This document shows positions 32,267 through 57,982 of a stretch of 64,000 bases of DNA, piece after piece. The stretch is from Oceanococcus sp. HetDA_MAG_MS8 (GTDB lineage Bacteria > Pseudomonadota > Gammaproteobacteria > Nevskiales > Oceanococcaceae). The position numbers were made by a program, and so were the translations under genes. The stretch is taken from positions 91,246-155,245 of the forward strand of contig JAHCMK010000006.1 in NCBI GenBank assembly GCA_019192445.1. The letters are read 5' to 3'. Numbering within the stretch: the stretch's first letter is position 1; every line of letters starts with the position of its first letter. The notes beneath the pieces are model-generated. The model saw nothing but the letters and a program-made list of their open reading frames with translations, was not told where the DNA came from and did no database searches.

Positions 32267-33109
32267 TTATCCGGCGAGCATCCATTCAAACTCGGTCCCC
32301 TTGAGGTAGCTAGCAACCTCGCCAAAATTCATGATCATTGACGACAGCGGAAAGGGATTGACTCTTCGCATGCGTAACTCATATCGCTCGGGCGAGATGC
32401 CCACATGCTCGCAGACCTTACGGTAAGCGCCTTCCACCCCTGGCTCTATGTCATTTTCAAAAACGAGCTGAAGCAATTGGCTTTGGGGGAGCGCCTCGAT
32501 CATATTTCGCTGAAATTCGAGGTACCACCGGAGTACAAAAAGAAGGTCTCCATTCCCAGGCCCACTGGGTGCCTCAATATCTACCTTGACACTGCGCGGC
32601 AGCTCCAGGGCACCGTCATGCGAAAGCTCTTTCCGACCTTGGTGATACACAAATAGACCAGAAACCAAGGCGCGCAGGGCATTTCGACGAGTAAGTAGGA
32701 TGTAGTGAGTGCAACCTAGTTTTTGCAAAAGCTGAACGTACTCTTGTGGCGTTTGAGGCACACAGCGAGAGCTGAAGTGCATGGCTTTTGTTTCAAACCC
32801 CATGACGCCGCTTGAGGCTGCGCAAACCGAACGCCGAATGACCTCTTCAACCCACGGCCGAGTTGGCTCAAAGCCAGGGCAATAGCTGCGAACTCCATCA
32901 AAGATCTCACCACTCCAGCGCACTTGTGAATGTTGCCGCAACACGTCGGCGAGAAGCGTACTTCCGCAGCGACCACTATGGAACATGGCCACCTGAGAAA
33001 TCTTCGGCGTCCCCCAGAGTCGTTGACGACAATTATTCGCGAACCGCAGGCGACGTAGATCGGCGCCCAGCCATGGCCCTATGTGTTTGGACATTCGGTG
33101 TAATGGCAC
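32267..33109 (-). CDS. sulfotransferase (NodH/Stf0-like)
   Basis: 280 aa. 5'-PSB-like loop FHSGRCGSTLLADVL and 3'-PB-like ILLTRRNALRALVS. Late FENDI segment as in NodH/Stf0-type enzymes. Confidence 0.65.
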   Translation of the reverse strand: MPLHRMSKHIGPWLGADLRRLRFANNCRQRLWGTPKISQVAMFHSGRCGSTLLADVLRQHSQVRWSGEIFDGVRSYCPGFEPTRPWVEEVIRRSVCAASSGVMGFETKAMHFSSRCVPQTPQEYVQLLQKLGCTHYILLTRRNALRALVSGLFVYHQGRKELSHDGALELPRSVKVDIEAPSGPGNGDLLFVLRWYLEFQRNMIEALPQSQLLQLVFENDIEPGVEGAYRKVCEHVGISPERYELRMRRVNPFPLSSMIMNFGEVASYLKGTEFEWMLAG

Positions 33110-33170
33110 TAGTGCGTCGATTCCAATCTGGATGTTTTCGGTGGAGAAGAGATTCTCGAAGCAGAATAAG

Positions 33171-34430
33171 TTAAGGCGTCTGCAGTGACTTCAGGCTCAT
33201 GAGAAAGTCGCCCAGAATCCTATCAATATTTAAGTTTTCCTCGGCGTACGCGCGCGCACGCGATCCAAGCCGTAACCGCAGGCTAGCCGAGGCGGCAAGG
33301 TCTTGGATGGCGCGCACCAAAGCTTGTTGATCTTCTGGGGGCACGCAAACGCCCCCACCAGACTTGGAGATAGTTTCCGCAAGGGCTGTGCCCGCTTCTG
33401 CAGTCACAATACTGGGTCTAGCCGCCGCAAAAATATTGGCCAGTTTGGATGGCATAACTAGATCTGCTGCGGCACGCTGCTGAAGAACAACATGTATGTC
33501 TGCAGCCGCTAGTATGGAAGGAAGCTGCTCTCTTGGCTGTAACGGGAAGAACTTAACATTGGTCACTCCGAGGTCACTGGCTTGCGCCTCGAGGCTTGCT
33601 CTCGCCGCGCCTTCACCAATCATCACGAAAGTAATGCGTGCATCGTTCTGTAGAGCCTGAGCAGCTTCTAGCAGCCCACCAAGGCCTTGCTTAAAACCCA
33701 TATTCCCCGCGTACAGCACAAGTACTTGATCTGAACGGACCCCTAACCTACTGCGCACCTTGGTGCCATCCTCTTGCGAAGAGATTTCTTGCAGGTCCGC
33801 CCAGTTGGGAACCAACAAACATTGTTGTTGGCTCACGCCCTTTGCGACGATCTTATTGAGCATGGCTGGACTCACTGTTGACACCAGTGCAGCCCTCTGA
33901 AGCAGCTTCTCCTCCAGGAAAAACAGCAGTCGCCGTAGACGCCTACCGCTAAGCATACCGAGTTGAAGAGCGGCATCAGCCTGCAAATCTTGGACATGAG
34001 CCACTCGTGGAACATTCCGTAGCGCGCAGTACAGCCACGGCCAAATCATTGCTTGCAGAGGCGGAACAACGACGACCATAGCGTCTGGCTTAGCTCGAAT
34101 AAACAGCCGCCGGAGCCAATACATTACGCCGCGCAAATTGAAGCTCGTTTCCAGGGCAATTCGGCCCTTTGCCCCAAGGTTATGCTCGCGAGGAATATAG
34201 TGCGGAATCCTTTCAACAGGAACACCGTCAACTGTCTCGCACAGGACTCTCCAGGGGGATACTCGCCCCTCATACGCCGGATCGAGGCGCCATGCCGGGT
34301 AATGGGGAAACCCACAAACAACGGTCACCTGCAACCCTCTTTGCACAAACCAACGGGCCATATCAGCGGTGAATTTCCCAATGCCGGTCGGCTCGGGGGC
34401 ATAGTTCAAGCTGAGGATTTCAATCCGCAT
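33171..34430 (-). CDS. GT4 glycosyltransferase (WcaI-like)
   Basis: Start taken at MRIEILSLNYAPEPTGIGKFTADMARWFVQRGLQVTVVCGFPHYPAW, the WcaI-type N-terminus. The C-terminal GT-B domain follows. The track ORF extends 22 codons further upstream. Confidence 0.8.
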   Translation of the reverse strand: MRIEILSLNYAPEPTGIGKFTADMARWFVQRGLQVTVVCGFPHYPAWRLDPAYEGRVSPWRVLCETVDGVPVERIPHYIPREHNLGAKGRIALETSFNLRGVMYWLRRLFIRAKPDAMVVVVPPLQAMIWPWLYCALRNVPRVAHVQDLQADAALQLGMLSGRRLRRLLFFLEEKLLQRAALVSTVSPAMLNKIVAKGVSQQQCLLVPNWADLQEISSQEDGTKVRSRLGVRSDQVLVLYAGNMGFKQGLGGLLEAAQALQNDARITFVMIGEGAARASLEAQASDLGVTNVKFFPLQPREQLPSILAAADIHVVLQQRAAADLVMPSKLANIFAAARPSIVTAEAGTALAETISKSGGGVCVPPEDQQALVRAIQDLAASASLRLRLGSRARAYAEENLNIDRILGDFLMSLKSLQTP

Positions 34431-34473
34431 TCGCCCCTCAGTTTTCTTTGGTCTTCCGTCACCCAGAGAGCTG

Positions 34474-35331
34474 TCAGACATAGCCCAAGTAGCCATCTAC
34501 GCCATTAGCTAACATCTGATATTTTTCAACCTGATCAAATGCGAGCCAGTTTCCAGTTTCCCGCATCCCAGGCGGCTGGAACACTAAGTGGCCAGGCTGG
34601 AAAAACCCAAAATGGGGTATGTTGAAGTAGTAGGCCAAATGCACGAAAAAACTATCCGGCCCGATATAAAGATCACCAGCAAGCAGTGCCTGCACGGCAT
34701 CGGCTAGCTTAGGCTTGGCTAGGTATGTGTCGACTCGCCCGGAGTACTGCAAATACTGACCACAAGGGTCGATAAGAGTTATTTTCCAGCACCGCTCTTT
34801 AGCGAGAAGCACGACGTTATCAATGACTTTGGAGGACAACCATCGTTCGCGATAACGTGCACAGGGGTTGATGACGACTCGACGCACCGAATGCTGCGGT
34901 AACCGCAATGAAGGCCACGGGCACTGAACGCCCAGCAAACTCTCCAGCAGTATGCGGCGGTCTTCGTACACACTTCTCCCTGTGGGTGTGTAACAACCTT
35001 GACGCCCAGGCCAGACCAAGAGCCGATTACGAATACCATCACGTTCAAACACAAGCATATCGCCAGGATTGGTTTGACGCCCCAATCGCCACCACGCCAA
35101 CCCTAAGTCCCTTACAGCCGCGAGCACCCCTCGCTCTTTAACGGTATTGAAAGCCGCCTTATCTGGAAGAATAGAGTGAATGGGCAATGGAAAACGCATC
35201 TGCTCAGAGACTTGCCGCGTCAGACCAGTTCCTATGATATTAAATTGAGCTCCCTGCTCACGCGCGCGCTCCAAGACTGACAATGTGATCAGTGCATCGC
35301 CAAAAGCCATGAGCGTAACGATGTGAATCAT
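34474..35331 (-). CDS. GT9-like glycosyltransferase (heptosyltransferase fold)
   Basis: 285 aa. MIHIVTLMAFGDALITLSVL (cf. GT9 ALGD) and C-terminal GPDSFFVHLAYYFNIPHFGFF (cf. DSGPMHLAAALG.P). Divergent, so the family call is tentative. Confidence 0.5.
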   Translation of the reverse strand: MIHIVTLMAFGDALITLSVLERAREQGAQFNIIGTGLTRQVSEQMRFPLPIHSILPDKAAFNTVKERGVLAAVRDLGLAWWRLGRQTNPGDMLVFERDGIRNRLLVWPGRQGCYTPTGRSVYEDRRILLESLLGVQCPWPSLRLPQHSVRRVVINPCARYRERWLSSKVIDNVVLLAKERCWKITLIDPCGQYLQYSGRVDTYLAKPKLADAVQALLAGDLYIGPDSFFVHLAYYFNIPHFGFFQPGHLVFQPPGMRETGNWLAFDQVEKYQMLANGVDGYLGYV

Positions 35332-36029
35332 ACTGATTCGCTAGCGTAGCGGCGGAATACGATAATTGTTTCAAAGCCATACAGCGACCAAATGAAGCTG
35401 TTGACACGCATAGCCCCCCCACAAAGTCTTCGCGGAAGTTGAATTACCCAGTGCGCCAGTCCCAGGCAAGCGTACACAGGATGCCTGTAGCGCAAATGAA
35501 CCGACTCTGGAGTCAAGTGCGCCTGTTCCAATTCCCGATAAACTTCGGCGGCGCTGATCACATGACGATGTGTAGGATCATCGTAGAAATTCAAAGTGCC
35601 CTCGGCTGATGGAAAATGCACGCTCGCCTTGGTCGGGAATGATGCGTAGATCACGCCGTTCGTCGACAGGCATTCAGAAACCACTCGGAGCACACCCAGC
35701 GGATCATCGACATGCTCCAAGACATGCTGGAGGATGATCAGATCGAAGGTCCTCCCATCTAGGCTCTGCTTGAGTGCACTTGCGTAACGATCTTTAGGCA
35801 AGATAATGACCTCAGCAGCCATCTCGATATCGTGCGCGTTGAGGTGGAAATACTCTACGTCGACTCCGGTGTAGTGCACATCCGGCCTGAGTGACTTGAC
35901 CCGCGTAGGTGAGTGATTCCCGCAACCAATATCAAGAACTGCTGCGCCCCGTGGTGCGTCGAACAGCCATCGACAATGCGCGGGCCGCAACGCACGCAGT
36001 AAAAAGCGTCGCAAAGATCGTTTAACCAT
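35328..36029 (-). CDS. class I SAM-dependent methyltransferase
   Basis: Motif I VLDIGCGNHSP and DLIILQHVLEHVDDP. Start set at MVKRSLRRF (36029) to avoid a 74-nt overlap with the upstream GT2. Confidence 0.75.
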   Translation of the reverse strand: MVKRSLRRFLLRALRPAHCRWLFDAPRGAAVLDIGCGNHSPTRVKSLRPDVHYTGVDVEYFHLNAHDIEMAAEVIILPKDRYASALKQSLDGRTFDLIILQHVLEHVDDPLGVLRVVSECLSTNGVIYASFPTKASVHFPSAEGTLNFYDDPTHRHVISAAEVYRELEQAHLTPESVHLRYRHPVYACLGLAHWVIQLPRRLCGGAMRVNSFIWSLYGFETIIVFRRYASESV

Positions 36030-37017
36030 GTGTTCGACTGTCCGGTTCAAAGGCGCCCGCAGTTCGAGCACGCACAGATCGAGCGAGATTGACATAGGCG
36101 ACGAAGGCCCGTCTTCCAGCCCACGAAACCAACCAGTTCAACACACTGCGCGGATGCCCTGGCCTTGCGCTCCAAGCATGTTTGAACCACCGCCGCGCGG
36201 CCTTAGCACTACCCTCTTTGCATAGCGTCTGGCCGAGTAAGTTCGCGTAGTGAGAATACGCCATGGCCGAGGGACGGATAACTTCCGAATGACGAACAAG
36301 AATTCTCTGCAAGCTCGCCGCGTAACCGGCCTCGTCCGCCAAAAGGCTGTCAGCACTTTTGTGGTAGCGGACGAGGCGGGCAGGCAACCAAAGAACCTGA
36401 CCCTTCTTCGCCAGCTTTATGATGAATTCCCAGTCTTCAAAACGACTTAAATCCTCAGAAAAGCCACCCACAGACATTGCTGTGTCTCGTCTGACCATCC
36501 AGCAAGACGCCCCCGGTACACGCCACGGAATCCACGGGCCTAAATCGATTGGCGTCATTTCACCATGAGCCCTTCCGTAAGAGCGTGACTCATCTTGAGG
36601 GCACTCGCAGCCGCAGGCGATGGCAACGGCCTCTGGCCGCAGCTCAAAAGCGTCGTAGGTAAGACTGAGACGTCCTGGCATCCACTCGTCATCGCTATCT
36701 AGAAAAACCAACACCTCTGAATTTGCCGCATGAATCCCCATGTTCCGCGCTTTTGCGGGCCCCTCTCGACATGTCGTTGACATATAGCGGATGCGAGCGT
36801 CTTTCACCCCACGCACCAGCTCGGATGTCTCATCCGTGGATTGGTCGTCGATGATGAGGACTTCGTCATCAACACTCAGCTGCGGCAATACACTCGCAAG
36901 CGCCCGACGCAAAGCACGTGCCCGATTGTAAGTTGGGATAATGACGCTCAATCGAGCCTGACCACTAGCGTCTTCCATCGGGATGTCTGGGCTACCTTTG
37001 CTGGCGATTCCGGCCAA
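36022..37017 (-). CDS. GT2 glycosyltransferase
   Basis: LSVIIPTYNRARALRRALASVLPQ, IIDDQSTDET and FLDSDDEW (DxD). Confidence 0.85.
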   Translation of the reverse strand: MAGIASKGSPDIPMEDASGQARLSVIIPTYNRARALRRALASVLPQLSVDDEVLIIDDQSTDETSELVRGVKDARIRYMSTTCREGPAKARNMGIHAANSEVLVFLDSDDEWMPGRLSLTYDAFELRPEAVAIACGCECPQDESRSYGRAHGEMTPIDLGPWIPWRVPGASCWMVRRDTAMSVGGFSEDLSRFEDWEFIIKLAKKGQVLWLPARLVRYHKSADSLLADEAGYAASLQRILVRHSEVIRPSAMAYSHYANLLGQTLCKEGSAKAARRWFKHAWSARPGHPRSVLNWLVSWAGRRAFVAYVNLARSVRARTAGAFEPDSRTHG

Positions 37018-37215
37018 GCCTGAAAATAAGATTCTCTAGCCGACGTTAGAAGTGTATGTCATGGGTCGGCGGTTATGGGATCGCAGCCTATCACCCGAGG
37101 TATTAGGCTCTAACTCGTGACCGCCAGCTCAGCACTGATCATTGCGCAAATGCAGCCATTACCATTGGCTACGGGTTAATGTCCACGGCATATCGACAAC
37201 AAAGCCTCATCATCA

Positions 37216-38142
37216 TTGAACCAGACTCACATGTTGACGACCGCAGTTTTCCACTCCAAAGCCCTCCGGGCTAGCGCTCGCTTGCTTCGCGATATTGCCA
37301 ATCCCGGCCGGCTCGTGGCACATCGACATCGGCGCAATCAACCAATTGTTCTGGCCTGCTACCACAAGTCGGGAACGGAGCTGTTAAGCAAAATTTTCGC
37401 TGCTGTATCTCGGCGTTTTGGTTGGCGGTTTCGTACGCTGCATGGCTACAAAACAGGCCTTGCTCCAGACGCGGAGGTCATGCTGTATGCCCACTCATTA
37501 ATTGCACTGGACCAAGTCACTGAACCTTATGTGGGCGTGCATCTCATTCGCGACCCCCGAGACATTATTGTTTCGGGCTACCTTTATCATCGGCAAACCC
37601 AAGAAGGATGGTGCACAAATGTTCCGCCATCTCCACCTTTTCCAGACGACATCGATTTTCCCTTAGTGCCCTACTCTCAGCGCCATCGCGATGAAGCGTG
37701 GAAGAAGTCATACCTTCGCACACTCGCCGGCCTTTCGTACCAGCAGACATTGTGTCAACTCAGCCGTGACGATGGCCTCATCTTTGAGATGGATCACTAT
37801 GCAAGGTGGACTATCGAAAGCATGAGAGACTGGAACTACACCAACGAAAAGGTGTTAGAGGTACGCTTTGAAGACTTGAGAGACAATTTCGATCAGGGCT
37901 TCAATAGGATTTTTTCTCATGCAGGACTGAGGGACGACGAACAAACGGTTGCGATGCGCATTGCTCGTAAACATGACCTTAATCGAAAGAGCACCCGTGA
38001 GCTGCGTCGCATGACACATGTGACTGGTAATGAGCCTCAGAAGTGGCGGCGGTATTTCACCCCCGAGTTGAAAACAGCCTTCCTGAGCCGATTTGGCGAC
38101 ATACTTATTGACCTTGGTTACGAAGAAGACAACAGGTGGTAA
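37216..38142 (+). CDS. sulfotransferase (cytosolic-type PF00685-like)
   Basis: 308 aa. 5'-PSB VLACYHKSGTELLSKIF (cf. PKSGTTW) and 3'-PB VHLIRDPRDIIVSGYLYH (cf. RDPRD..VS). Confidence 0.8.
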   Translation: MNQTHMLTTAVFHSKALRASARLLRDIANPGRLVAHRHRRNQPIVLACYHKSGTELLSKIFAAVSRRFGWRFRTLHGYKTGLAPDAEVMLYAHSLIALDQVTEPYVGVHLIRDPRDIIVSGYLYHRQTQEGWCTNVPPSPPFPDDIDFPLVPYSQRHRDEAWKKSYLRTLAGLSYQQTLCQLSRDDGLIFEMDHYARWTIESMRDWNYTNEKVLEVRFEDLRDNFDQGFNRIFSHAGLRDDEQTVAMRIARKHDLNRKSTRELRRMTHVTGNEPQKWRRYFTPELKTAFLSRFGDILIDLGYEEDNRW

Positions 38143-38161
38143 GCCGAGGACCATCCAACGC

Positions 38162-39058
38162 TCAGTTGTATCCGTATCTCCTAAGTAGCGGTCTGCAGGT
38201 TGTCGCCAGCACCTGATTGGGCAAAGACGGCGTTCGTTGCGGCCACGGATCACTCACCTTAATTTCCGTTGGCCCGGTCTTGAAGGCGTCTGGGTTGCCC
38301 ACTACTCCATGATAATTTTGGATATCCACAGTGCGGCTATCTTCTGCAAGAGGAGACGCATAACTGACACCCAGCCAGTCACATATACCTTCCAGACTAA
38401 CGCCCGGGTTGTGTAGAAAGTCCTCAAACCGCATGAGCCGATAATGTAGCGCGCTGTGACCCAGCACCCGCTCCGCCAACACATTCGAGATGGCCCACTC
38501 CAACGCAATGCCCATCCACCCGCGCTGTTTTAGCCACTGCTTGTCGCTACGCCATGACATAGCGACTCCTCTGACATCACGGACCAAATGTAAAACCCAC
38601 AGCTCGACATTTGGCAACATTGACAGCGCCGTACCATACGACGCCACTCTGGACGTCTCTACGATGATCTTGCCGCCAGTCTGCTCAGCAAGTCGGAGAT
38701 ACAGCTCGTCGAGTCGTCCGAGGTATTCATCGAAATCTGGCCTCGCGCGTGTGCGTCCGGAGTGGAACATCAACTCCGGACGTTGGGAGAATCGAAACTT
38801 CTGGCGCCACTCATGCATGGCCTCCGGCTTCCATCCATCAATCAAACAGCCATTGGGGTAAAAAACCCTCCCCCAGAACTCGCACTCCTGAAAACTATGT
38901 CGACACGCACAATGCCCACTTCGCAGGAAGTTCCTAGCCCAGGTGTCATGGAGCTCCCCAACGGGGAAAAAGTTCTTCATCTGACCTAGCACTCGGCCGA
39001 TCAGGGTTCCACCACTACGGCCGGCTCCAGCAAGGTATAGAACCCGAGCTTTTTCCAT
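38162..39058 (-). CDS. sulfotransferase (Sulfotransfer_3-like)
   Basis: 298 aa. 5'-PSB LYLAGAGRSGGTLIGRVL and 3'-PB LHLVRDVRGVAMSW. Confidence 0.7.
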   Translation of the reverse strand: MEKARVLYLAGAGRSGGTLIGRVLGQMKNFFPVGELHDTWARNFLRSGHCACRHSFQECEFWGRVFYPNGCLIDGWKPEAMHEWRQKFRFSQRPELMFHSGRTRARPDFDEYLGRLDELYLRLAEQTGGKIIVETSRVASYGTALSMLPNVELWVLHLVRDVRGVAMSWRSDKQWLKQRGWMGIALEWAISNVLAERVLGHSALHYRLMRFEDFLHNPGVSLEGICDWLGVSYASPLAEDSRTVDIQNYHGVVGNPDAFKTGPTEIKVSDPWPQRTPSLPNQVLATTCRPLLRRYGYN

Positions 39059-39060
39059 TG

Positions 39061-40350
39061 TTAACTCACTTCACTCCAAAGGCGCCCCTCTTCCGCAGAA
39101 CGCTGCAACACTAGCCTTATCGCCCCAAGTAGCGTCAGGCCAAACAATACACCTACGGTTCTACTGAACAAGCCTGAGTGCGCCCAAAACACGGACCAGT
39201 AGGCGACGTTGGCAGCTATCAAACCCATATAGAAAGTATCTGGTGCAGACATTTTTCGCCATGCAGAAATGACGATCAGATACATAAATGCCATTTGGAG
39301 GGCAAAACTGAAGCACATCACTAAACCACCGGCTTCTAAAAGCTCTAACAAGCGATGATGGGCTTGCCCTATGGTGTGGTATCCGTTGCCCAGTACAGGC
39401 CTTTCCCAAATATCCTCCCACGACTCGGCCTGACGAACTGCCCTTCGATAATCGGAAACTACAGATGAGGCTGCGCCGGAAAGACGGCTGTATGCAGACT
39501 GTGAATCTGGGGCGGGGCCTCCCCGAATGAGCACAGGAGCCAACGCTACGCAAGCGCTTACGAGGATTAGCTTATAGACATGGCTCCAGCGGAAATGACG
39601 GCTCCATAATGAGAAGCACACCACAAAAACTAGGCCGACCACTGGCGCCAAGAGGCTACTGCGCGACCCTGAAAGGTTTGCCGCTGAAAAATTCACGTAT
39701 AGGACCAACAGCCACACCAAGCTACCCATCCAGCTTCTACTTCGAATGAAGAGTACCGATGTTGCCGCCAAAGCCATTGACACATTGAAGCCCAAGCTAG
39801 TCGAGTGCAGTGCCATCCCGGCGAATCTACGGCCTTCATCTTTCGCGTAAGCATCCAGAAGATCTGGCCATAAACCGTTGGCATCCATTACTGCAACAAG
39901 AGCACTCAAGGTGCTTCCAAGGATCCAGGCCGTCACTAACTGCGGTACCACTCGCGGACCACTTGAATACCATTGCACGATCACGAGCGGCACCACGATG
40001 TGGATATAGCTGTACACAATGTACTGAGTGACGTTTTGGCGGTAAGTCGATGAGTTGAGCTCCAATTGCCACAATGCCGTGACCAAACCCAGTATGAGCG
40101 CGACTACCCAAGGCAACGGTAGCCACATCCGACTTGTACTCGCATCTTGCCCGAGAAATTTGACCGCAATCGCTAAACCGATACACAAGTCTGAAATACT
40201 CAGCGCCCCACTGACGCGTAATGACTCGCAAGGAGCGAAAAACACTCCCAGAAAGAGCAACCAAGTTGCTGCCGCGGAAAAGTCAACATACTGCTCCGCG
40301 GACAGTTGTTGCGTTATGCCGGAATAACTCGTGGAGCCTGGATTAACCAC
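39061..40350 (-). CDS. Wzy_C (O-antigen polymerase/ligase) family membrane protein, second copy
   Basis: 429 aa, about 10 TM segments. NLSGSRSSLLAPVV and a periplasmic loop ending ERPVLGNGYHTIGQAHHRLLELLEAGG. Confidence 0.7.
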   Translation of the reverse strand: MVNPGSTSYSGITQQLSAEQYVDFSAAATWLLFLGVFFAPCESLRVSGALSISDLCIGLAIAVKFLGQDASTSRMWLPLPWVVALILGLVTALWQLELNSSTYRQNVTQYIVYSYIHIVVPLVIVQWYSSGPRVVPQLVTAWILGSTLSALVAVMDANGLWPDLLDAYAKDEGRRFAGMALHSTSLGFNVSMALAATSVLFIRSRSWMGSLVWLLVLYVNFSAANLSGSRSSLLAPVVGLVFVVCFSLWSRHFRWSHVYKLILVSACVALAPVLIRGGPAPDSQSAYSRLSGAASSVVSDYRRAVRQAESWEDIWERPVLGNGYHTIGQAHHRLLELLEAGGLVMCFSFALQMAFMYLIVISAWRKMSAPDTFYMGLIAANVAYWSVFWAHSGLFSRTVGVLFGLTLLGAIRLVLQRSAEEGRLWSEVS

Positions 40351-41110
40351 GAGAAACTAGATGATGTGAACTCAGCTGACGCCACAAGCGCCCATGCTCA
40401 GGCAGGAAGACCCCATCGAATTGGAGCGTGGCCCCATCAGAGCGCCGCCGGTGCAGCGAAACAATATCGACTAAGCGGAAGCCCTTGGCAGCCATGAAAT
40501 CCATAGCCTGGTGCACAAGCGGGGCAGCATTGTTGTACGGCAGCAGGCCAACCTCCATGACAATACATTCCGCATGACTCAGGACATGCTCTGCCCCTGT
40601 CAAGATTTCAAGCTCGCTCCCTTGAGTGTCAAGTTTGAGCAAACATTTTCCAAGGGCAACGCTGCCAAGTTCCTTGTCAAGTGTGCTGGTGGTCATTAAC
40701 TGGCAGCGTCTCGAAAATGACGTCAGCTCCTCCTTGTATGACGACCCAGAGGCCATTTTATAGAAGGTCACTTCGCGGCCTTCCGTATCCGCTAACAAAT
40801 CGGAACGAAGCGTGAAGCGCTTCCCTCGAAGGTTCTCACGAATCAGCCCATGTTTATCTGCTTGAGGCTCAAATAGGAAGAGCTCTGCCTGAGGAAAGAT
40901 GCTTGACACTGACCGAGACCACTGCCCCTCAAACGCACCAACATCAACAATGGTGTCCGGAGCCAGGCCATGGCGAGCTAAGAGCTTCAGCCCATTACGC
41001 AAATCGGGGACGCCAGCGTGGAAGAAATCCACTTTTGCGGCTGCCCTACGCAGCCCTCGTGCCAGCAGTGAATTGATTCTCGAGGCCGACATCCCAATTC
41101 CCACCATCAA
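40343..41110 (-). CDS. FkbM-family methyltransferase
   Basis: 255 aa. IVDVGAFEGQWS motif I. LKLDTQGSELEIL, typical of the FkbM family. Confidence 0.75.
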   Translation of the reverse strand: MMVGIGMSASRINSLLARGLRRAAAKVDFFHAGVPDLRNGLKLLARHGLAPDTIVDVGAFEGQWSRSVSSIFPQAELFLFEPQADKHGLIRENLRGKRFTLRSDLLADTEGREVTFYKMASGSSYKEELTSFSRRCQLMTTSTLDKELGSVALGKCLLKLDTQGSELEILTGAEHVLSHAECIVMEVGLLPYNNAAPLVHQAMDFMAAKGFRLVDIVSLHRRRSDGATLQFDGVFLPEHGRLWRQLSSHHLVSRG

Positions 41111-42096: not shown

Positions 42097-42116
42097 TGAG
42101 CTCAACACTGAAGCGC

Positions 42117-47377: not shown

Positions 47378-48139
47378 ATGACATACAAAAAAGCGCTGGA
47401 ACGTATCAAGCGAGAAGGCCTTCTTGCCACTATGAGGTCTGTACCTCAATACTTGTATCGTAAATATCGAAGAAGGCAACACCGGAAAATGCTCGCGTTA
47501 CCGTCTTTAAGTGAGCGCTTTTCCGCAATCTATACCAACAACCTATGGGAGTCAGCGGAGTCCAAAAGCGGCCTGGGCAGTGAAATCACTTTCACACTGG
47601 CTCTTAGAAGCTGGCTCGTCGAAGCCATCCCGAAGCTCAGTATCAAAACAGTGGTCGATGCACCTTGCGGAGATTTTAACTGGATAAAGGAGCTACTGCC
47701 ACATACTAATGTTCATTATATCGGGCTGGATATTGTAGGGTCACTCATAGAAGAAAACAATAAGAACTTCGCCTCAGACCGAATACGTTTCGCCACGGCT
47801 GATATTTGTAGTGACACCATACCCCAATGCGATTTGCTGTTGATACGAGACTGCCTATTTCACCTGTCCATTGCCGACATAGACAAGGTTCTCAGGAACC
47901 TTGCCAATACAAACTACAAATACTTATTGACATCTACACATATCAACACCTCGGACTTCAGGAATAAGGATATTGTTTCGGGAGGGTTTCGCCGCATTGA
48001 CTTGTTCGCTCACCCTTTCAATTTCGACGAGAAACATGTGATTGAACGTGTCAATGACTCTCCTGAAGGGTTTGCCCATCCTCGACAGATGGTACTTTTT
48101 CGTAAATGCCATGTACCATCAGCCATTGCAATGACGTAG
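47378..48139 (+). CDS. class I SAM-dependent methyltransferase
   Basis: 253 aa. VVDAPCGDFNWIKELL, YIGLDIV and LLLIRDCLFHLS. Noticeably AT-richer than its neighbours. Confidence 0.7.
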   Translation: MTYKKALERIKREGLLATMRSVPQYLYRKYRRRQHRKMLALPSLSERFSAIYTNNLWESAESKSGLGSEITFTLALRSWLVEAIPKLSIKTVVDAPCGDFNWIKELLPHTNVHYIGLDIVGSLIEENNKNFASDRIRFATADICSDTIPQCDLLLIRDCLFHLSIADIDKVLRNLANTNYKYLLTSTHINTSDFRNKDIVSGGFRRIDLFAHPFNFDEKHVIERVNDSPEGFAHPRQMVLFRKCHVPSAIAMT

Positions 48140-48442: not shown

Positions 48443-49606
48443 ATGTGCAGTCCTACGCAGCGCTCCGGGGCGACGCCAAATGCGTCGAAAGCCAAAAAAC
48501 CCCTAAACTCGCAGTCCAACAGCAACCAAATATATACTTCCACACTGACATCGCTGAGAGGAATACTTGCTGTATGGGTCGTTGCGTTTCATTTTAGACA
48601 CGCCCTAGAAACACTTTTCCCAGCGCTTCAACACATTGCACCAATTACGGCAAAAGGGAACTTAGCCGTTCCAGCGTTCTTCATACTGAGCGGTTATATT
48701 TTAGGGGAGGCGCATGGAGGAGATTTCTCGCGCATATCGAAACAGGCGGTTACTAAGTTTTACCTTCTCAGGCTTGCGCGCATCTATCCAGTACATTTAA
48801 TCACAATGCTGCTATCTGGATCCATCGCATACACACTCTTGCATTTTGGATACCTGGAAAGCCTCTCTGCGTTTTCGGCAAAAGATGCCTTATATAATAT
48901 TCTGTTGATACATATGTGGCACCCCGTAGCTCAGTTGAGCTGGAACTATCCCTCTTGGTCAATAAGCTCAGAGTGGTTTGCCTACCTTCTCTTTCCGTTC
49001 TTTGCGATGATGACAGCACGCTTAGGGCATCAGGCAAGACCTGGATTCATTCTGCTTGCTTCCCTAGGTCTTGCTTTGGCTGGCAGCGAGTATTACACCC
49101 GTGGTCATCAGCAGCCGTTCTTTGGAATGGTGTGCATCATCCCTTATTTCCTCTCGGGCTTGCTCTTTCATCAGTTTCAGAGGTACCACGATCATCGCTC
49201 GATCAAGTTACCCCGCGCTCTCCTTCACTGCTGCACGGCAGCAGTGCTAGTGGCACCATTCTTTCTCGATGGCGATGCGGTTAGTATTGTGTTGCTATTC
49301 GTCCTCACTTTGATGATATTTTCCCTTGCCCTTTCAGGCACCGACAGTGCTAGAGGCTGGCAGCATCCATGGTTAGTATCTTTAGGAGCGCGCAGCTATT
49401 CACTTTATATGACCCATGCGCTGGTACAGATTGCCCTGTATCGAATTCTCCCAGCTGCAGAGTTCGCTGAGGGCGCCTTCTATGTTAGAGCGGGCATTTT
49501 CGGTATATACCTCACGCTAATCTGGCTTGCGTGTAGCTTTTGTTTCCGATACTGCGAACAGCCAAGTCGTACACGCCTGAAAAAACATATTCTGAATCGG
49601 CTTTAG
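48443..49606 (+). CDS. acyltransferase family 3 (O-acyl/acetyl transferase) membrane protein
   Basis: 387 aa, about 10 TM segments. N-terminal signature LTSLRGILAVWVVAFHF. Confidence 0.8.
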   Translation: MCSPTQRSGATPNASKAKKPLNSQSNSNQIYTSTLTSLRGILAVWVVAFHFRHALETLFPALQHIAPITAKGNLAVPAFFILSGYILGEAHGGDFSRISKQAVTKFYLLRLARIYPVHLITMLLSGSIAYTLLHFGYLESLSAFSAKDALYNILLIHMWHPVAQLSWNYPSWSISSEWFAYLLFPFFAMMTARLGHQARPGFILLASLGLALAGSEYYTRGHQQPFFGMVCIIPYFLSGLLFHQFQRYHDHRSIKLPRALLHCCTAAVLVAPFFLDGDAVSIVLLFVLTLMIFSLALSGTDSARGWQHPWLVSLGARSYSLYMTHALVQIALYRILPAAEFAEGAFYVRAGIFGIYLTLIWLACSFCFRYCEQPSRTRLKKHILNRL

Positions 49607-50256: not shown

Positions 50257-51405
50257 TTATTCCTTTCGCCTATCACTGTCGTCAGTCGCACGCTTTGAGA
50301 CAGACGTCGGAAACAACCTCTTTAGTCGCATGGCTGGACCTTCGATGAGCACGCCCGATAAATGAGCTGCGATCAGAATAAGGGCCAGCACAATCGCAAA
50401 GCTTGGCCATCCCTTTTGCTCACCAATGAGTTGATTTACACGTGGCTCAACAAATGTAAGAAATGGCATATGAAATAGGTAGATCGCATAGCTTAAGCTA
50501 CCAAGATACACGGGAACCTTTGACCGCAACCAGCCCAGCCACCACCTGGGTGGGCTAGTCACAATGAGTGCGATTAGACCCATGAATAACACAGCCGCCT
50601 GGGTCCATAGCAACGGCCTATGGAGAAGCTCTAAATCCGAAAGCCTTCCTGAATATCCAGCAATTAAATATGGAAGCAAGGAACCCAGGGCGGATAACAT
50701 AGAAATCCACCCGAGGCACGCTACCTTCATGAGGTTCCTTGTTGATCCAGTTGAACCGGCGGCGTAGTGAACAGCAACTGCCAACCCAACACCTAGTGCC
50801 AAACAGTCTATCTGACTCAGCAATAGCACTGGCGCCAACACCTGTGTCTTCAGATACAACCCGACGACTAGAAGACCGACCAAGGCCACTGATATACCGA
50901 TTAGGCCAAAGCGGGGGACAATCAGCAAGAGCAACAGCGGAAGGCATAGATAGAACTGCTCTTCAATTGCCAGAGTCCATATTGGCAGAAGGCCAGGAAG
51001 GAATTCGAGAAAGGAAAAGGGGTGATCCGACAGATTGAAATACAACGGTGTGAACTGAAGGTACACCATCGAAAGCTTCCATTCCGTGAAGCGAACTGTC
51101 GCGAAAAATTCATCACCATAACGAGACAAACTGTAGACGAGGTATACGACCAGCACAAAGTAGTATGCCGGCCAAACACGCAGAGCTCTTCTTATATAGA
51201 AGTTTCTCAGTGAAAATCTGCCGGCAACCAAGTCAATCAGGATAATACGCCCAATTAGATAGCCTGATAGCACAAAAAACATGGGCACCCAGCACCACGC
51301 CCAGAAGATATAGGTTGGATCCCAATGGTAGAAAACAACCATTAAAGCCCCAACACCACGGAGCCCGTCTAGCTCCGATATATTTTGAATTCTTTGCTGC
51401 GCCAT
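50257..51405 (-). CDS. acyltransferase family 3 membrane protein, second copy
   Basis: 382 aa, polytopic. ELDGLRGVGALMVVFYH signature. LGSLSYAIYLFHMP late motif. Confidence 0.8.
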   Translation of the reverse strand: MAQQRIQNISELDGLRGVGALMVVFYHWDPTYIFWAWCWVPMFFVLSGYLIGRIILIDLVAGRFSLRNFYIRRALRVWPAYYFVLVVYLVYSLSRYGDEFFATVRFTEWKLSMVYLQFTPLYFNLSDHPFSFLEFLPGLLPIWTLAIEEQFYLCLPLLLLLIVPRFGLIGISVALVGLLVVGLYLKTQVLAPVLLLSQIDCLALGVGLAVAVHYAAGSTGSTRNLMKVACLGWISMLSALGSLLPYLIAGYSGRLSDLELLHRPLLWTQAAVLFMGLIALIVTSPPRWWLGWLRSKVPVYLGSLSYAIYLFHMPFLTFVEPRVNQLIGEQKGWPSFAIVLALILIAAHLSGVLIEGPAMRLKRLFPTSVSKRATDDSDRRKE

Positions 51406-51586
51406 TGGTTTTACTTTATTGTGGGCAGCAAGTCGTTTTGGACCAGGTTGTGGTCTATCTCCGCAACCGATTTGGTGGTCAGCATTGCATACTGCCGCAC
51501 GCTCGAAGACGACAAGCTCAATACCTCGAATTGGTTTGTCTGACTCACCCTTGAACCTAGCCGACTGATGGCGCTGCTTTGAACAC

Positions 51587-53332
51587 TCATTGGCTGCGGG
51601 AAGCCTTGATGCGGCGCGCTGTTCTCAGAGCGCGCGCGAGTCTCCCATACCGCCACCCAATGTGCGATCGCTGAATCGCCAGGGTGTCATGGACATCCTC
51701 AATCAACTCGTAATCCAGGCTATCTAATAGTTCGTTACATAGATTCTTGTCAGCGTCTGCGAAATGCTTATGCTCGAACAGGACAACGGCCGGGCGAAAT
51801 TCCAACCCTTGAATATCTTTGAGTATTTCAAAGTCATGCCCCTCCGCATCAATATGCAATAAATCCAGGTTGTCTAAGTCATGTTTCTTACATAACTCTT
51901 TGAGGGTAATACACCTCACGCTCTCTTCCACAATGCGGTCGGCAATATCAGGGATGTACTCCCTATGCTTCATGAGATGCGCCAGGTCGAATGAGCCTAT
52001 CTGGTCATACCAGGGTGGCAGATACGGATCGGAGCTATGGCGCAAGTAGTAAAACGTGGCTTGCTTTTCAGTGCGCGTTACCGCGGCTCGCTCAAGCTCG
52101 AGTCGTTTGTTGTTCCCGTAGCGCTGCTGTAGGCGCTCAAAGACATATGGGACGGGCTCTACCAGAATGCCGGACCACTCCCGGTTCGAGACATAGCTCT
52201 GCAATGGGTCGTCACAAACAGCATCATTGGATCCAACCTGAAGGAACTTAATGTTACTGCGAGTGTACGCAAAGGCTTCGAGGACATGGCGAAAAGGGCT
52301 TCGCCTCGGAGGCGCGTTTCGCAGGGTCCAGTAAACGTCACGCAACCACGCACCTAACCAGTTCTCTGGTGTACTGGACCAACGCAGAAGGTGAGTTTTG
52401 ATGCGTCGCCTGATTGGTGGCCCCGCCATAAAACGCTGCCAACGCCACTCCACACCGGCCGGCACCATGCCAATAAGGCCGTTCCGTACGGTGCGGCCCA
52501 CGATCGGGCGCGTCTCCCACGGTGTCTGTGCGAGCACATCGAAAAATTCGCGCCGATAGGGATTACGACAGCGTTGATGCCAAGCCTTAAAAGGGCCGAT
52601 GAAGTGCACGATTCGTGGCGATTGACGCGCCTGATTTATGTGTTTCACCGCATAGGGCAACGCCGAGTATGGGGCCGTGAACAGAACTGTCATCGCATTC
52701 CACTTCGGCTCCAACTGCAGCCAGCGACCTCTAAAAACTGCATTCAGTGGATCTTGATCAGCCCAAGGCATGGGTGCACGCCGCTCCTTGATAAAGTCGA
52801 TAAGGGCGTCAACACAGCCATCTTTTCGCATACGCTCAAGGTCCATGAGCATAACGCCACTATTAAAATACGCCTCAGGTGTTGATACTCCGAGTTGTTT
52901 GACGCGGGAAAACTCAGAAGGCAGCAGAGGCTGACTTACGGCTGCGAGCAAGTGCTCGCCTAAGTCCACTTGCCACAAGGCAGCCAGGTCCCCCCTGACG
53001 AGGGTATCAGCATCAACGTACAGAATTCTGCGTTGATTCGTGAGCAGTGTTGGAAGCAGGACTCGGTACCATGCCGACAAACCGAACCGTTGAGTTCTCG
53101 GGAATATTGTGCACATCTCAGGGTGGACCCTTGCAGGGCACCATGAAGCGCCGTGGCCTTGAACCACCCGCTCCAATGTCGCTAAATCTTCAGGCTGGCT
53201 GGCGTCGTCATACAGAAAGTGAATGCTGACCTGATGAGTCTTATTGTGGCTGAGCAAAGAGCTAAGCATTACGCCACAATCGACGATCAACCGGCTGTCG
53301 GCTGAGCAAGCGATGTGCAAGTGTTCGGTCAT
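51587..53332 (-). CDS. bifunctional GT8 glycosyltransferase / FkbM-family methyltransferase fusion
   Basis: 581 aa. The N-terminal half is GT8 (HIACSADSRLIVDCGVMLSSLL, ILYVDADTLV DxD, YFNSGVMLMDL, IVHFIGPFKAWH). The C-terminal half is FkbM-like (FLQVGSNDAVCDDPL, VEPVPYVFERL, LLHIDAEGHDFEIL). Confidence 0.8.
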   Translation of the reverse strand: MTEHLHIACSADSRLIVDCGVMLSSLLSHNKTHQVSIHFLYDDASQPEDLATLERVVQGHGASWCPARVHPEMCTIFPRTQRFGLSAWYRVLLPTLLTNQRRILYVDADTLVRGDLAALWQVDLGEHLLAAVSQPLLPSEFSRVKQLGVSTPEAYFNSGVMLMDLERMRKDGCVDALIDFIKERRAPMPWADQDPLNAVFRGRWLQLEPKWNAMTVLFTAPYSALPYAVKHINQARQSPRIVHFIGPFKAWHQRCRNPYRREFFDVLAQTPWETRPIVGRTVRNGLIGMVPAGVEWRWQRFMAGPPIRRRIKTHLLRWSSTPENWLGAWLRDVYWTLRNAPPRRSPFRHVLEAFAYTRSNIKFLQVGSNDAVCDDPLQSYVSNREWSGILVEPVPYVFERLQQRYGNNKRLELERAAVTRTEKQATFYYLRHSSDPYLPPWYDQIGSFDLAHLMKHREYIPDIADRIVEESVRCITLKELCKKHDLDNLDLLHIDAEGHDFEILKDIQGLEFRPAVVLFEHKHFADADKNLCNELLDSLDYELIEDVHDTLAIQRSHIGWRYGRLARALRTARRIKASRSQ

Positions 53333-54315
53333 CCAGGCCCACCTTTGGGTTTACGCCACCACTTCAATGACGCTTTCAATTGTCGCAGGCGCCCCCACCA
53401 CAACTCTAGGAAATAGGCCCAAACAGCGGGTATCCTGTGTAATACCCAGTTGGGGAAGCTCTCTCCAATGACCGCACAATCAGGCCAGTCAGTCCGCCGG
53501 CGATAGCGAAAATATTCTTTCTTATATGGAACGCGGCACCGGTAATGCCAGGGTTTAAAAGGCCCGCTAAAATGTACGATCGCCGGTTGGGTCCGCGCCT
53601 CATAGATTTCAGAGGTAGAGTATGGCAAGTAGCGGCGTGGAAGTTGGAAGTAGGCGGTTTGGGCATTCCAGCGCGGCTCTAAGTCGACTCTACTGTCCGC
53701 ATAGACGATGTTCAGCGGATCCTGGTCAACCCAGGGAAAGCGCCCTCCTTCGCGCCGCACAAGTTCGAGTAACCGGCGTGCCCGGCCGGTTTCTCGCATG
53801 GCCTTCAAGTCCATCAGTAACACGCCGCTATTAAAGTAACGATCAGGCTCATTTAAGCCTAACCCATCGCGAATCCTAGGCACCATGTGCGAATACAAAG
53901 GATTTGTCACCGCAGCAAGGCAATGACCGTTGAGAGGACGTTCCCATAGGGACCAAAGGCTCTTCATCACCACGATATCTGAGTCTAGGTAAAGGACTCG
54001 CTCTAACGGCGCCAGTAAATCTGGTAGAAGAAGCCTGAAACTTGCACTCAGACCGTATCGCGGTGAGTCCTGTAGATGAGCGATCAAGTGATGCGGAACA
54101 GCCAACGGCCGCCACTCTCCCCCAGCCCGGGCCACAGAACTAGCGAGCCCTGCCATTACGGGTGCAGGCAACTGCTTGTCGTGCAAAAAGTGTATGACAA
54201 CACGGTTAGGGTCATGCTGGCTCATCAGAGAAACCAGCATGGTTGCGCAATCCGCCGCAAAGTCTGCATCAGCAGCACAAGCTACGTGCAGTTCATTGGG
54301 AATCGCGCCGCTCAT
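53329..54315 (-). CDS. GT8 glycosyltransferase
   Basis: 328 aa. LHVACAADADFAADCATMLVSLM, VLYLDSDIVV, YFNSGVLLMDL and IVHFSGPFKPWH. Confidence 0.85.
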   Translation of the reverse strand: MSGAIPNELHVACAADADFAADCATMLVSLMSQHDPNRVVIHFLHDKQLPAPVMAGLASSVARAGGEWRPLAVPHHLIAHLQDSPRYGLSASFRLLLPDLLAPLERVLYLDSDIVVMKSLWSLWERPLNGHCLAAVTNPLYSHMVPRIRDGLGLNEPDRYFNSGVLLMDLKAMRETGRARRLLELVRREGGRFPWVDQDPLNIVYADSRVDLEPRWNAQTAYFQLPRRYLPYSTSEIYEARTQPAIVHFSGPFKPWHYRCRVPYKKEYFRYRRRTDWPDCAVIGESFPNWVLHRIPAVWAYFLELWWGRLRQLKASLKWWRKPKGGPG

Positions 54316-55214
54316 CCACCCAGATCCAGTATTTTTTCAGGGAGTAGCCTGCGCAAGCGTGGCCGTAGTTGGTCTCGCCAGTACACTAGCTTGCGATGCA
54401 GGTAGGGGGGGTCTATCAGATCAAGTAACCCATGCTTTTTCTGCGTCGCGTACAGATGGTTAGAGTCAGAGCGACTCTTTGGCTCCTCAATGTTCAGAAA
54501 CGCACTCAAAAAGCCTTTCGACTCCCCTAGGTCTGAGGTGCAAACCACTATCCTCCTGGATTCAGGAATTGCTTCCAGGACTAGGTTCAGGTGTGCGGCC
54601 CAAAAACGTAGATATCCATCGAGTGGGAAAAGGCCACGATTCTCAAGTGGTTGTTCGTCACCGGCGCATGGGCGGCTGAAGCCGGAAAAATAATAGTGAT
54701 AAACCGACGCCCAGAGAGGCGCTTGCGACTGAATCCACTCACGGGCATTCAATTGGTCATCAAGCATCGACCCAAGCCACGCTCGTGGAGACCGGACCGT
54801 AATGATGAACTTGGCGTGAGGAAATAGACTCACCAGAGTGGGGGTAAACGCGGCCAATAAGTGGTTGGACTCGAGCTCCCAACTGTCCTGCTTATCTCGC
54901 CAGTAAAGCCAGCTCCGGTAATCCTGCTTCAACTCCGGAAACCTCCGGCTTTCTTGGATCGCTCTCAGTAGTGGCTTACTAGTTGGCTCGTGCTGAACCT
55001 TCAGGCATGACTCAAACATACCGGCCACTGAGTGCGTACCGGTTTTTGGGGCGCCAACACAATAAGCATGCACGCGACGCTTGCCTCGCTGACGCTCAGC
55101 CAAGAGAAGGCCAGCCCGGTCTAGGTAACGGTAGGGGTGGGCGCTGGTCACAATACCCAGCCCCTTCTTGCCATCCTCTTGTACACAGGGAACTGCCAGG
55201 AAGGAGGGAGACAT
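54312..55214 (-). CDS. probable sulfotransferase
   Basis: 5'-PSB-like YCVGAPKTGTHSVAGMF and 3'-PB-like FIITVRSPRAWLGSMLD. The ATG at 55214 overlaps the upstream GT8 by 67 nt. The alternative GTG at 55151 gives a GTGA stop/start overlap. Confidence 0.55.
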   Translation of the reverse strand: MSPSFLAVPCVQEDGKKGLGIVTSAHPYRYLDRAGLLLAERQRGKRRVHAYCVGAPKTGTHSVAGMFESCLKVQHEPTSKPLLRAIQESRRFPELKQDYRSWLYWRDKQDSWELESNHLLAAFTPTLVSLFPHAKFIITVRSPRAWLGSMLDDQLNAREWIQSQAPLWASVYHYYFSGFSRPCAGDEQPLENRGLFPLDGYLRFWAAHLNLVLEAIPESRRIVVCTSDLGESKGFLSAFLNIEEPKSRSDSNHLYATQKKHGLLDLIDPPYLHRKLVYWRDQLRPRLRRLLPEKILDLGG

Positions 55215-57109: not shown

Positions 57110-57112
57110 TAC

Positions 57113-57979: not shown

Positions 57980-57982
57980 ATG

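Follow-up and report, generated by a model that had tools for sequence, protein, structure and literature searches.

Four sulfotransferases of distinct lineages in a predicted surface-polysaccharide island of Oceanococcus sp. HetDA_MAG_MS8

The four sulfotransferases

We analysed a 64-kb stretch of DNA from Oceanococcus sp. HetDA_MAG_MS8 (contig JAHCMK010000006.1, positions 91,246 to 155,245; the whole stretch is called the window, and coordinates are counted from its first nucleotide), in which four sulfotransferase (ST) genes lie within an island of polysaccharide-assembly genes. These open reading frames (ORFs) are ORF1 (32267..33109, minus strand), ORF2 (37216..38142, plus strand), ORF3 (38162..39058, minus strand) and ORF4 (54312..55214, minus strand). 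For ORF1 the probable start lies inside the longest ORF, at 33094 (ATG, 275 aa, as called in Logan) or at 32989 (GTG, 241 aa, as in nr); ORF2 probably starts at 37231 (303 aa) and ORF4 at 55103 (263 aa, as in nr). The original prediction had assigned the four ORFs to STs of different families from two motifs in each, a 5'-phosphosulfate-binding (PSB) loop and a downstream 3'-phosphate-binding (3'-PB) motif. The ORFs lie where it had placed them, and all eight motifs occur in the translations: GRCGSTLL and RRNALRALVS in ORF1, HKSGTELL and RDPRDIIVS in ORF2, GRSGGTLI and RDVRGVAMS in ORF3, and PKTGTHS and RSPRAWLGS in ORF4.

Searches of the PDB with single sequences (phmmer) were nearly empty, with no match for ORF1 and E≥0.005 for ORF2 to ORF4, and therefore we built a family alignment and a profile for each ORF. 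The PSB loop, (K/R)-x-G-(S/T)-(S/T), is present in all four and invariant in each family alignment, and the 3'-PB motif contains an invariant pair of residues in each family (R101/S110 in ORF1, R112/S120 in ORF2, R160/S168 in ORF3 and R141/S149 in ORF4). Because the motifs fall on invariant columns of each alignment, they are not accidental look-alikes of a P-loop, and the profile and fold evidence given below rules out chance P-loops in proteins other than STs. The roles proposed for the motifs also agree with the AlphaFold2 (AF2) models of ORF1 and ORF3, where they are placed in ST-like strand-loop-helix elements. Modelling and Foldseek searches covered ORF1 and ORF3, while the fold of ORF2 and ORF4 was assigned through profile matches to solved STs. 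Judged by their profiles or folds, all four belong to the ST superfamily that depends on 3'-phosphoadenosine 5'-phosphosulfate (PAPS), and they represent distinct lineages within it.

The distinctness of the lineages is visible at several levels. With the curated Pfam hidden Markov models (HMMs), ORF2 and ORF4 scored above the gathering score (PF00685, 35.3 bits against 22, and PF17784 or Sulfotransfer_4, 44.3 bits against 22.8, respectively), whereas ORF1 and ORF3 scored below it; the relatives of the latter two mostly match PF13469. Of the models that had been proposed as a check, PF00685 recognised ORF2 and PF13469 gave sub-threshold matches to ORF1 and ORF3, while PF09037 and PF03567 matched none of the four. 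No NCBIfam model matched any of them either. Pairwise BLASTP among the four gave nothing better than E=0.02, in agreement with the claim that they are too diverged to be recent duplicates, and recent paralogy was therefore rejected. The description "different families" needs to be made precise: the set comprises one PF00685 protein (ORF2), one PF17784 protein (ORF4) and two PF13469-like groups that cannot be aligned with each other (ORF1 and ORF3). A scan for transmembrane (TM) segments found none in ORF1 to ORF4, and HMMs of the four families detected no fifth ST among all six-frame ORFs of the window.

ORF1 is a divergent PF13469/NodH-like ST, assigned from its family profile and its AF2 fold. 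It is a "hypothetical protein" in nr and has only 19 relatives among 5.8 billion proteins; 17 of the 19 family members match PF13469 at E<0.01, two relatives match PF09037, and one carries the UniRef name "LPS sulfotransferase NodH". H-x-G-R-C-G-S and R101/N103/L105/R106/S110 (RxNxLRxxxS) are invariant in the family. Against the PDB, the family profile found the OLS ST (4gox, E=1.7e-3), the CurM ST and the solved NodH (9vki, E=0.08), and it did not retrieve Stf0. In the AF2 model (pLDDT 89.2, pTM 0.87), GRCGS occupies a strand-loop-helix element (strand 2-4, helix 10-18) and RRN...S a strand-helix element. The best 15 Foldseek matches in the PDB were all STs, 14 of them heparan-sulfate 3-O-STs, with E values down to 4.7e-6. 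ORF1 is the weakest of the four assignments by sequence, yet its predicted model is most similar to heparan-sulfate 3-O-STs. The loci of ORF1 relatives in Albimonas, a Roseobacter metagenome-assembled genome (MAG) and a Myxococcota MAG contain nucleotide-sugar, glycosyltransferase (GT), acyltransferase, exosortase or ABC-exporter neighbours; there is no evident glycan operon around the nearest homolog, P0002. A tblastn search of all PLSDB plasmids, rhizobial symbiotic plasmids included, found a Salinibacter "NodH" only (24% identity). NodH, Stf0, KpsS and LpsS share with ORF1 and ORF3, which are PF13469-like, the superfamily and the R-x-G-S/T form of the PSB loop. Orthology to NodH or Stf0 was ruled out by the marginal profile match to the former, the failure to retrieve the latter and the low identity of the plasmid match.

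ORF2 belongs to a large family, with 1643 representative clusters of homologs at E≤1e-3, in which H50/K51/G53 and R112/D113/R115/S120 are invariant. Its profile matches the solved cytosolic SULTs at E=1.5e-14, and the alignment places HK(v)GT on PKSGT (TYPKSGTNW in SULT2A1) and RDPRDviVSGY on RNPRDVLVSGY of the same enzyme. The matches of ORF2 among PLSDB plasmids are STs of the Roseobacter group.

ORF3, a PF13469-type ST, was likewise assigned from its family profile and AF2 fold. It is named "sulfotransferase" in nr, nearly all of its 104 homologs bear PF13469, and R14/S15/G16/T18 and R160/D161/R163/S168 are invariant in the family. The profile matches the OLS ST (5.7e-21), the CurM ST (3.3e-16) and tyrosylprotein STs (TPSTs, ∼2e-10). 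The AF2 model (pLDDT 91.8) places the PSB loop in a strand-loop-helix element (strand 4-10, helix 15-24) and the 3'-PB motif in a strand-helix element, and the best 15 Foldseek matches are TPST, CurM and OLS STs (TM-score 0.50-0.60). Three cysteines are also invariant in the family, C50-x-C52...C59; an F-W pair comes next (consensus CGCGxPxxxCPFW), and the triad lies in an insertion that follows the second strand. This triad is no feature of the matched solved STs and could be a metal site. The closest relatives of ORF3 (52% and 46% identity) are encoded on two metagenomic contigs, one from JGI (L004) and one from Logan (L002). A scan of GTDB representative genomes with a 6-sequence family alignment returned 260 relatives, all at ≤35% identity and mostly from Actinomycetota, Chloroflexota, Gemmatimonadota and Planctomycetota; the Oceanococcus MAG is not among them. 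When we counted ST-like ORFs within 10 kb either side of 87 ORF3-relative loci with the four family HMMs, at least two were present in 31 loci and at least three in 10; these figures are lower bounds, and in genomes of high GC some of the ORFs counted may be artefacts of overlapping frames. Four actinobacterial and other MAG loci (L022, L024, L042 and L050) contain two to four adjacent or overlapping ORFs of the ORF3 family, which could represent tandem arrays of STs or else artefacts of overlapping frames in high-GC DNA.

ORF4 is also a "hypothetical protein" in nr and has seven relatives among the 5.8 billion proteins. Its family alignment has invariant P56-K-T-G-T60 and R141/W146/L147/S149. 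The family profile matches Schistosoma STs (4.3e-11) as well as SgdX2 and Cpz8, and the 3'-PB motif aligns with IRDKYDWLYS of the Schistosoma ST. One homolog, P0126, lies in an ABC-type (Wzm/Wzt-type) glycan locus with a GT8 and two acyltransferases; among PLSDB plasmids ORF4 had no match.

The island and its relatives

The genome announcement describes HetDA_MAG_MS8 as a 3.53-Mb MAG with 58.5% GC (read set SRR14140256), obtained from an enrichment of a Rivularia-like heterocystous cyanobacterium that had been picked from Trichodesmium colonies at Station ALOHA; the polysaccharide locus goes unmentioned in it. The organism belongs to the Oceanococcaceae (Gammaproteobacteria), with the order listed as Nevskiales or Chromatiales. 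The nr database contains proteins of this MAG that are identical to ORF1, ORF3 and ORF4, and ORF3 also occurs on a 58.8-kb Logan contig assembled from SRR14140256. Upstream of ∼20.4 kb the window carries housekeeping genes (ABC importer, SulP, DsbD, GT9 heptosyltransferase, CysH, M48 peptidase and K+/H+ antiporter). Genes for tRNA-Ala(GGC) and tRNA-Glu(UUC) follow at 20502..20672 on the plus strand (ARAGORN, Rfam) and are the likely left landmark of the island, which spans from about 21.7 to beyond 63.7 kb (∼42 kb or more). The GC content is 0.57-0.62 before ∼20 kb and 0.50-0.55 from there to the window end. Because it drops right after the tRNA genes, below the genome mean, the base composition suggests that the island was acquired laterally beside them.

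Two modules can be distinguished. Module A (21.7-46.8 kb), which holds ORF1 to ORF3, begins with a FecR-like gene, which is followed on the plus strand by genes for an EpsL-like (BBP2_2) outer-membrane beta-barrel (22854-24029), a short outer-membrane polysaccharide export (OPX) protein of 193 aa with Poly_export and SLBB domains (24054-24635) and a polysaccharide co-polymerase of the PCP-2a type fused to a bacterial tyrosine kinase (BY-kinase; Wzz, GNVR and a P-loop domain, AAA_31/TIGR01007; 24632-26842), all identified with Pfam and NCBIfam. A membrane protein with a Wzy_C domain, of the polymerase/ligase family, is encoded at 27457..28917 (plus strand; PF04932, 41.9 bits against a cutoff of 31.7). 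The initiating enzyme is a WcaJ-like polyprenyl-phosphate hexose-1-phosphate transferase (PGT) at 28889..30358 on the minus strand (Bac_transf, E=6e-64), which scored 373.6 with TIGR03025 (cutoff 295.6) and 381 with the WcaJ model TIGR03023, just under its cutoff of 410.75. The remaining Pfam-assigned genes of module A are on the minus strand: three methyltransferases (31050-31763, 35328-36095 and 40343-41110), two GT4 (33171-34496 and 41107-42210), one GT2 (36022-37017) and five tandem GT2 genes with overlapping ends (42117-46828). The same strand carries a 9-TM Wzy-like protein without an assigned family (39061-40350, from the TM scan), whose stop codon is 3 nt before the start of ORF3.

A junction at 47.4-51.4 kb has mixed gene orientation and the lowest GC of the island (∼0.50). 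It contains a methyltransferase (47378-48139, plus strand) and two O-acyltransferases of the Acyl_transf_3 family (48443-49606, plus strand, and 50257-51405, minus strand; all Pfam). Module B, which holds ORF4, is an operon running entirely on the minus strand (51587..63707; Pfam and NCBIfam). It encodes a GT8-FkbM fusion, a GT8, ORF4, another GT8, a free-standing FkbM methyltransferase (56285-57109), a PhyH-type iron/2-oxoglutarate dioxygenase (57113-57979), two TylF O-methyltransferases, an RGP-like (GT75-like) protein, a TylF-like protein and a PglK/MsbA/HepA-like ABC exporter (61899-63707; NCBIfam). The stop codon of ORF4 and the start codon of the GT8 gene that comes next share bases in the sequence ATGA. 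In total, the STs sit among one PGT, 13 GT-type genes, the Wzy_C protein, the PCP-BY-kinase, the OPX protein and the ABC exporter.

Of the components of a Wzx/Wzy pathway, the initiating PGT, a Wzy polymerase, a PCP/BY-kinase and an OPX protein are present. A flippase of the MOP family (Polysacc_synt) gave no match in any ORF of the window, and the candidates for this function, judged by sequence, are the 9-TM protein and the PglK/HepA-like ABC exporter. The 9-TM protein is kept in L002, L004 and a third related locus, L005; its homolog in L004 has a weak Wzy_C match, and therefore the island was counted as having two Wzy_C-like proteins. Methyltransferase genes or domains number nine between 31050 and 62002: they are of the FkbM type, of the TylF type and of class I (dependent on S-adenosylmethionine, SAM), with three of each. 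From these and the PhyH-type dioxygenase, we predict a product with heavy O-methylation and perhaps hydroxylation.

The 285-aa protein at 34474-35331 (minus strand) matched neither Pfam nor NCBIfam. Its homologs in L002 and L004 (47-55% identity) stand beside the same GT4 and methyltransferase, the L002 homolog has a weak GT9 match, and the protein itself bears a GT9-like segment (GPDSFFVHLA). It is probably a divergent GT9-like transferase, as judged from these similarities and its synteny. Its size had made it a candidate for a fifth ST, which was rejected as it has GT9-like traits and neither a PSB nor a 3'-PB motif.

Two further features of the gene content were observed. Two of the tandem GT2 genes (43043-43993 and 43990-44958) are 47% identical, the three GT8 paralogs (51587-56086) are 35-41% identical, and the FkbM domain of the GT8 fusion is 44% identical to the free-standing FkbM protein; the resemblance of these copies to one another points to local duplication. 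The FecR-like protein, the EpsL-like barrel and the short OPX (21754-24635) resemble the export genes of PEP-CTERM/exosortase exopolysaccharide (EPS) loci, all scoring under the equivalog cutoffs, and no exosortase was found in the window.

Parts of module A are conserved in the metagenomic loci. L004 keeps a block of ORF3, ORF2 (56% identity), GT2 (49%), methyltransferase (47%), the GT9-like gene (55%) and GT4 (35%), and it also contains heptose-pathway genes (hldE, gmhA and a gmhB-like gene). L002 keeps ORF3, ORF2, the 9-TM protein, an FkbM methyltransferase, GT4 and GT2 genes. The ORF2 orthologs in these two loci are 54-56% identical to the Oceanococcus protein and are unannotated; together with four Pfam-annotated STs in each locus, they bring the number to ∼5 STs per locus. 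Both loci keep module A and have no GT8/TylF module within 10 kb either side. L005 combines module-A homologs (the 9-TM protein, GT4 and GT2) with an ORF4-type ST and a GT8.

Comparison with described loci

The original prediction regarded such a locus as an undescribed pathway. This was an overstatement: polysaccharide loci with several STs have been published for Vibrio and Synechocystis and a sulfated capsular polysaccharide (CPS) locus for Cobetia, and related loci with several STs are present in metagenomes. Vibrio sp. KMM 8419 has a sulfated CPS/O-antigen and a 95-kb locus with three predicted STs and cysNDC, and one of these STs has its nearest relatives in Nevskiales (PMC11641403). In Cobetia marina KMM 1449, the CPS locus contains an ST gene together with cysNC, cysD, cysQ and a sulfate-permease gene (PMC11766843). 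We compared these loci with the Oceanococcus island by gene content. All three are from marine Gammaproteobacteria, and all are large polysaccharide loci (70-80 genes in Vibrio and Cobetia) in which STs stand among GTs and acyltransferases. The Vibrio and Cobetia loci differ in being of the Kps/ABC-transporter type (group 2/3 capsule), with polymers that are chemically proven to be sulfated, whereas the Oceanococcus island combines a Wzy/PCP-BY-kinase/OPX set with a PglK-like ABC exporter, four STs and nine methyltransferases, and is known from its genes alone.

In Synechocystis sp. PCC 6803, the synechan (xss) genes form an EPS cluster of the Wzx/Wzy type that encodes a PCP, eight GTs and the two STs XssA and XssE, each from its own subfamily; genetics ties it to a sulfated EPS, and its eight GTs serve an eight-sugar unit (PMC8205485). 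According to its description in 2021, the EPS clusters of other bacteria had until then yielded no ST genes (PMC8205485). The Oceanococcus island resembles it as a Wzy-type locus with a PCP, GTs and several STs of distinct subfamilies. Two components of xss, its Wzx and the regulators XssS/R/Q, were not seen in the island. In a tblastn search of ORF1 to ORF4 against pSYSM there was no match at E≤1e-3, and the best relation to xss, found by BLASTP and HMM comparison, was that between the ORF3-family profile and XssE (48.9 bits, 22% identity over 131 aa), which is a similarity at the superfamily level only. Orthology of ORF1 to ORF4 to XssA or XssE was therefore ruled out.

Among the PLSDB plasmids, 82 records matched ORF3, 74 of which are Sinorhizobium pSymB-type replicons (∼27% identity). 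A representative ST of this kind (CP050561.1, QND37037.1) belongs to the ORF3 family, with 286 bits and 26-27% identity over the full length, and keeps the CxC...C motif. It adjoins GT4 genes, a chain-length determinant and a gene with an O-antigen-ligase domain, that is, a Wzy/PCP locus; unlike the Oceanococcus island, this locus has one uncharacterised ST and an alphaproteobacterial host. In the literature, a putative sulfated-glycosaminoglycan cluster has been reported for Pontiella, and MAGs from Shark Bay mats, Nevskiales included, have ST, GT and exporter genes; the Nevskiales MAGs have been flagged as potential producers of sulfated EPS. A 2024 review counts six bacterial genera reported to make sulfated polysaccharides and describes the Pfam seeds as biased against bacterial polysaccharide STs.

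Thus, loci with several STs are documented in marine Gammaproteobacteria and in cyanobacteria, and an ST within a Wzy locus even in Sinorhizobium. What is distinctive of the Oceanococcus island is the number and diversity of its STs, two of them from sparse lineages, the nine methyltransferases alongside, and the Wzy/BY-kinase architecture in a gammaproteobacterium.

Predicted pathway and alternative readings

The STs are interleaved with GTs, methyltransferases and the Wzy/PCP-BY-kinase/OPX set, as had been proposed, and this arrangement leads naturally to the prediction of a sulfated surface glycan. We favour the reading, with a probability of roughly 0.6, that the four proteins are soluble, cytoplasmic, PAPS-dependent O-STs of four unrelated lineages, which would decorate the lipid-linked intermediates of an acquired surface-polysaccharide island. 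The analysis shows that the proteins are members of the ST superfamily, that their motifs are conserved and that the genes are embedded in operons with conserved synteny, while the acceptor, the use of PAPS, the place of sulfation and the number of products are predictions. The steps that follow are deduced from the domain content and from what is known of the Wzy pathway. The WcaJ-like phosphotransferase would prime undecaprenyl phosphate, and the GT2, GT4, GT9-like and GT8 enzymes would lengthen the oligosaccharide at the cytoplasmic face. The nine SAM-dependent methyltransferases and the STs would modify particular hydroxyls of the undecaprenyl-diphosphate-linked oligosaccharide in the cytoplasm, while it is being assembled. 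PAPS and SAM are cytoplasmic and the STs are soluble, so sulfation would precede flipping. Flipping of the unit may fall to the 9-TM protein or to the PglK/HepA-like ABC exporter; polymerisation by the Wzy_C protein and O-acylation by the Acyl_transf_3 proteins would follow, and export would run through the PCP-BY-kinase, the OPX protein and the EpsL-like barrel. The module B operon may be responsible for a second glycan, or for a side-branch. Given this gene content, the island probably makes one or two surface glycans that are sulfated, O-methylated and O-acylated.

How many products there would be is the point on which the best-surviving alternative differs. According to it, and to the original prediction, the whole island builds a single repeat unit of very large size, and each of the four STs sulfates a different position of the same EPS. 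The low-GC island is contiguous, and it has one PGT, no second initiating transferase and one export set, which favours one pathway. In a system without Wzx, the ABC exporter at the far end could flip the unit of the same pathway, and L005 mixes homologs of module A with an ORF4-type ST and a GT8. Synechan also speaks for this reading, with its eight GTs for an eight-sugar unit (PMC8205485). Against it, the 13 GT-type genes and the PGT of the island exceed the needs of known Wzy repeat units. Furthermore, module B is a separate, co-directional operon beyond the mixed-orientation junction of lowest GC (47-51.5 kb), it has an exporter of its own, and L002 and L004 keep module A without the GT8/TylF module in the 10 kb on either side. 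These features favour two products or a separately built branch, and we consider a single giant repeat unit possible but doubtful.

The favoured reading of soluble STs acting on lipid-linked glycan intermediates has its main gap in the supply of PAPS. No substantial ORF of the 64-kb window contains a CysC, CysN, CysD or CysQ domain. A SulP sulfate permease (10873-12621, minus strand) and a CysH-family reductase (16705-17430, plus strand) lie outside the island, ∼4 kb from each other and 4-11 kb upstream of it. This CysH has a CC pair (DFCCS), a CxxC (GCTHCT) and a C-terminal ECGLH, and its CC...CxxC cysteine pattern is what we take to be the mark of [4Fe-4S] adenosine 5'-phosphosulfate (APS) reductases. 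Because the pattern is of the APS-reductase type, sulfate assimilation would have no need of PAPS, and the formation of PAPS cannot be deduced from it. The co-occurrence of ST genes and PAPS-synthesis genes has been proposed as the hallmark of sulfated-polysaccharide clusters (PMC11641403). In the Oceanococcus island the ST genes do lie inside an assembly and export locus, and the 64-kb window contains no PAPS genes in or beside the cluster, unlike the Vibrio and Cobetia clusters, which carry their own cysN/cysD/cysC.

Besides the PAPS supply, several other observations weigh against the favoured reading. ORF1 reached 22.4 bits with PF13469 (gathering score 27), with the P-loop region alone matched, and ORF3 reached 25.9 bits over residues 9-233, its full length, which is ∼1 bit short of the same threshold. 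The fold matches of ORF1 are moderate (TM-score ∼0.5), with nucleotide kinases appearing from rank 16 on. The nearest solved relatives of ORF3 are non-carbohydrate enzymes, namely the OLS and CurM acyl-ACP STs and the TPSTs. The host, finally, is known as a MAG only.

Some of these points would also fit an alternative in which the glycan is not sulfated by every ST-fold protein, or by any of them. Their acceptor might instead be a lipid anchor, a small molecule or a protein tyrosine, for example; they might activate a leaving group as CurM and OLS do, or they might stay idle because the cell makes little PAPS. No stably sulfated polysaccharide would then be made. The relatives of ORF3 named above are activating STs and TPSTs, those of ORF4 (the Schistosoma STs, SgdX2 and Cpz8) act on small molecules, the window lacks PAPS genes beside a CysH of the APS-reductase type, and P0002, the nearest homolog of ORF1, stands outside an evident glycan operon. 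However, bacterial carbohydrate STs are scarcely represented in the PDB, so that the nearest structure tells little about the acceptor, and the model of ORF1 best matches STs that act on a carbohydrate, heparan sulfate. Moreover, all four genes are packed into operons with GTs (tightly so for ORF3, which follows the 9-TM gene after 3 nt, and for ORF4, which is translationally coupled within the module B operon), and the arrangement of STs and GTs is kept across distant taxa. We therefore regard a role away from glycans as quite improbable.

The island reveals no new principle. It does bring together, in one genetic context, four candidate carbohydrate STs that are unrelated in sequence, two of them from sparse lineages. 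Sulfated polysaccharides have value as biomaterials, and only a small number of their bacterial producers, or of polysaccharide STs, have been characterised. The ST-ST-GT2-methyltransferase-GT9-like-GT4 block, which recurs in marine metagenomes, could guide the assignment of acceptors. A more tentative idea, which we put forward as speculation, is that ORF1 and ORF4 represent two rare, unannotated lineages of carbohydrate STs, possibly with new regio- or acceptor specificity, and that together with ORF2, ORF3 and the nine methyltransferases they would yield an unusually densely sulfated, O-methylated exopolymer for life in the cyanobacterial phycosphere. If this is true, a heterotroph associated with Trichodesmium or Rivularia might use the polymer to bind metals or to adhere, for example, and the polymer would mirror the sulfated EPS that its cyanobacterial hosts produce. 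The island suggests that heterotrophs living on diazotrophic cyanobacteria add sulfated, methylated polymers to marine colonies.

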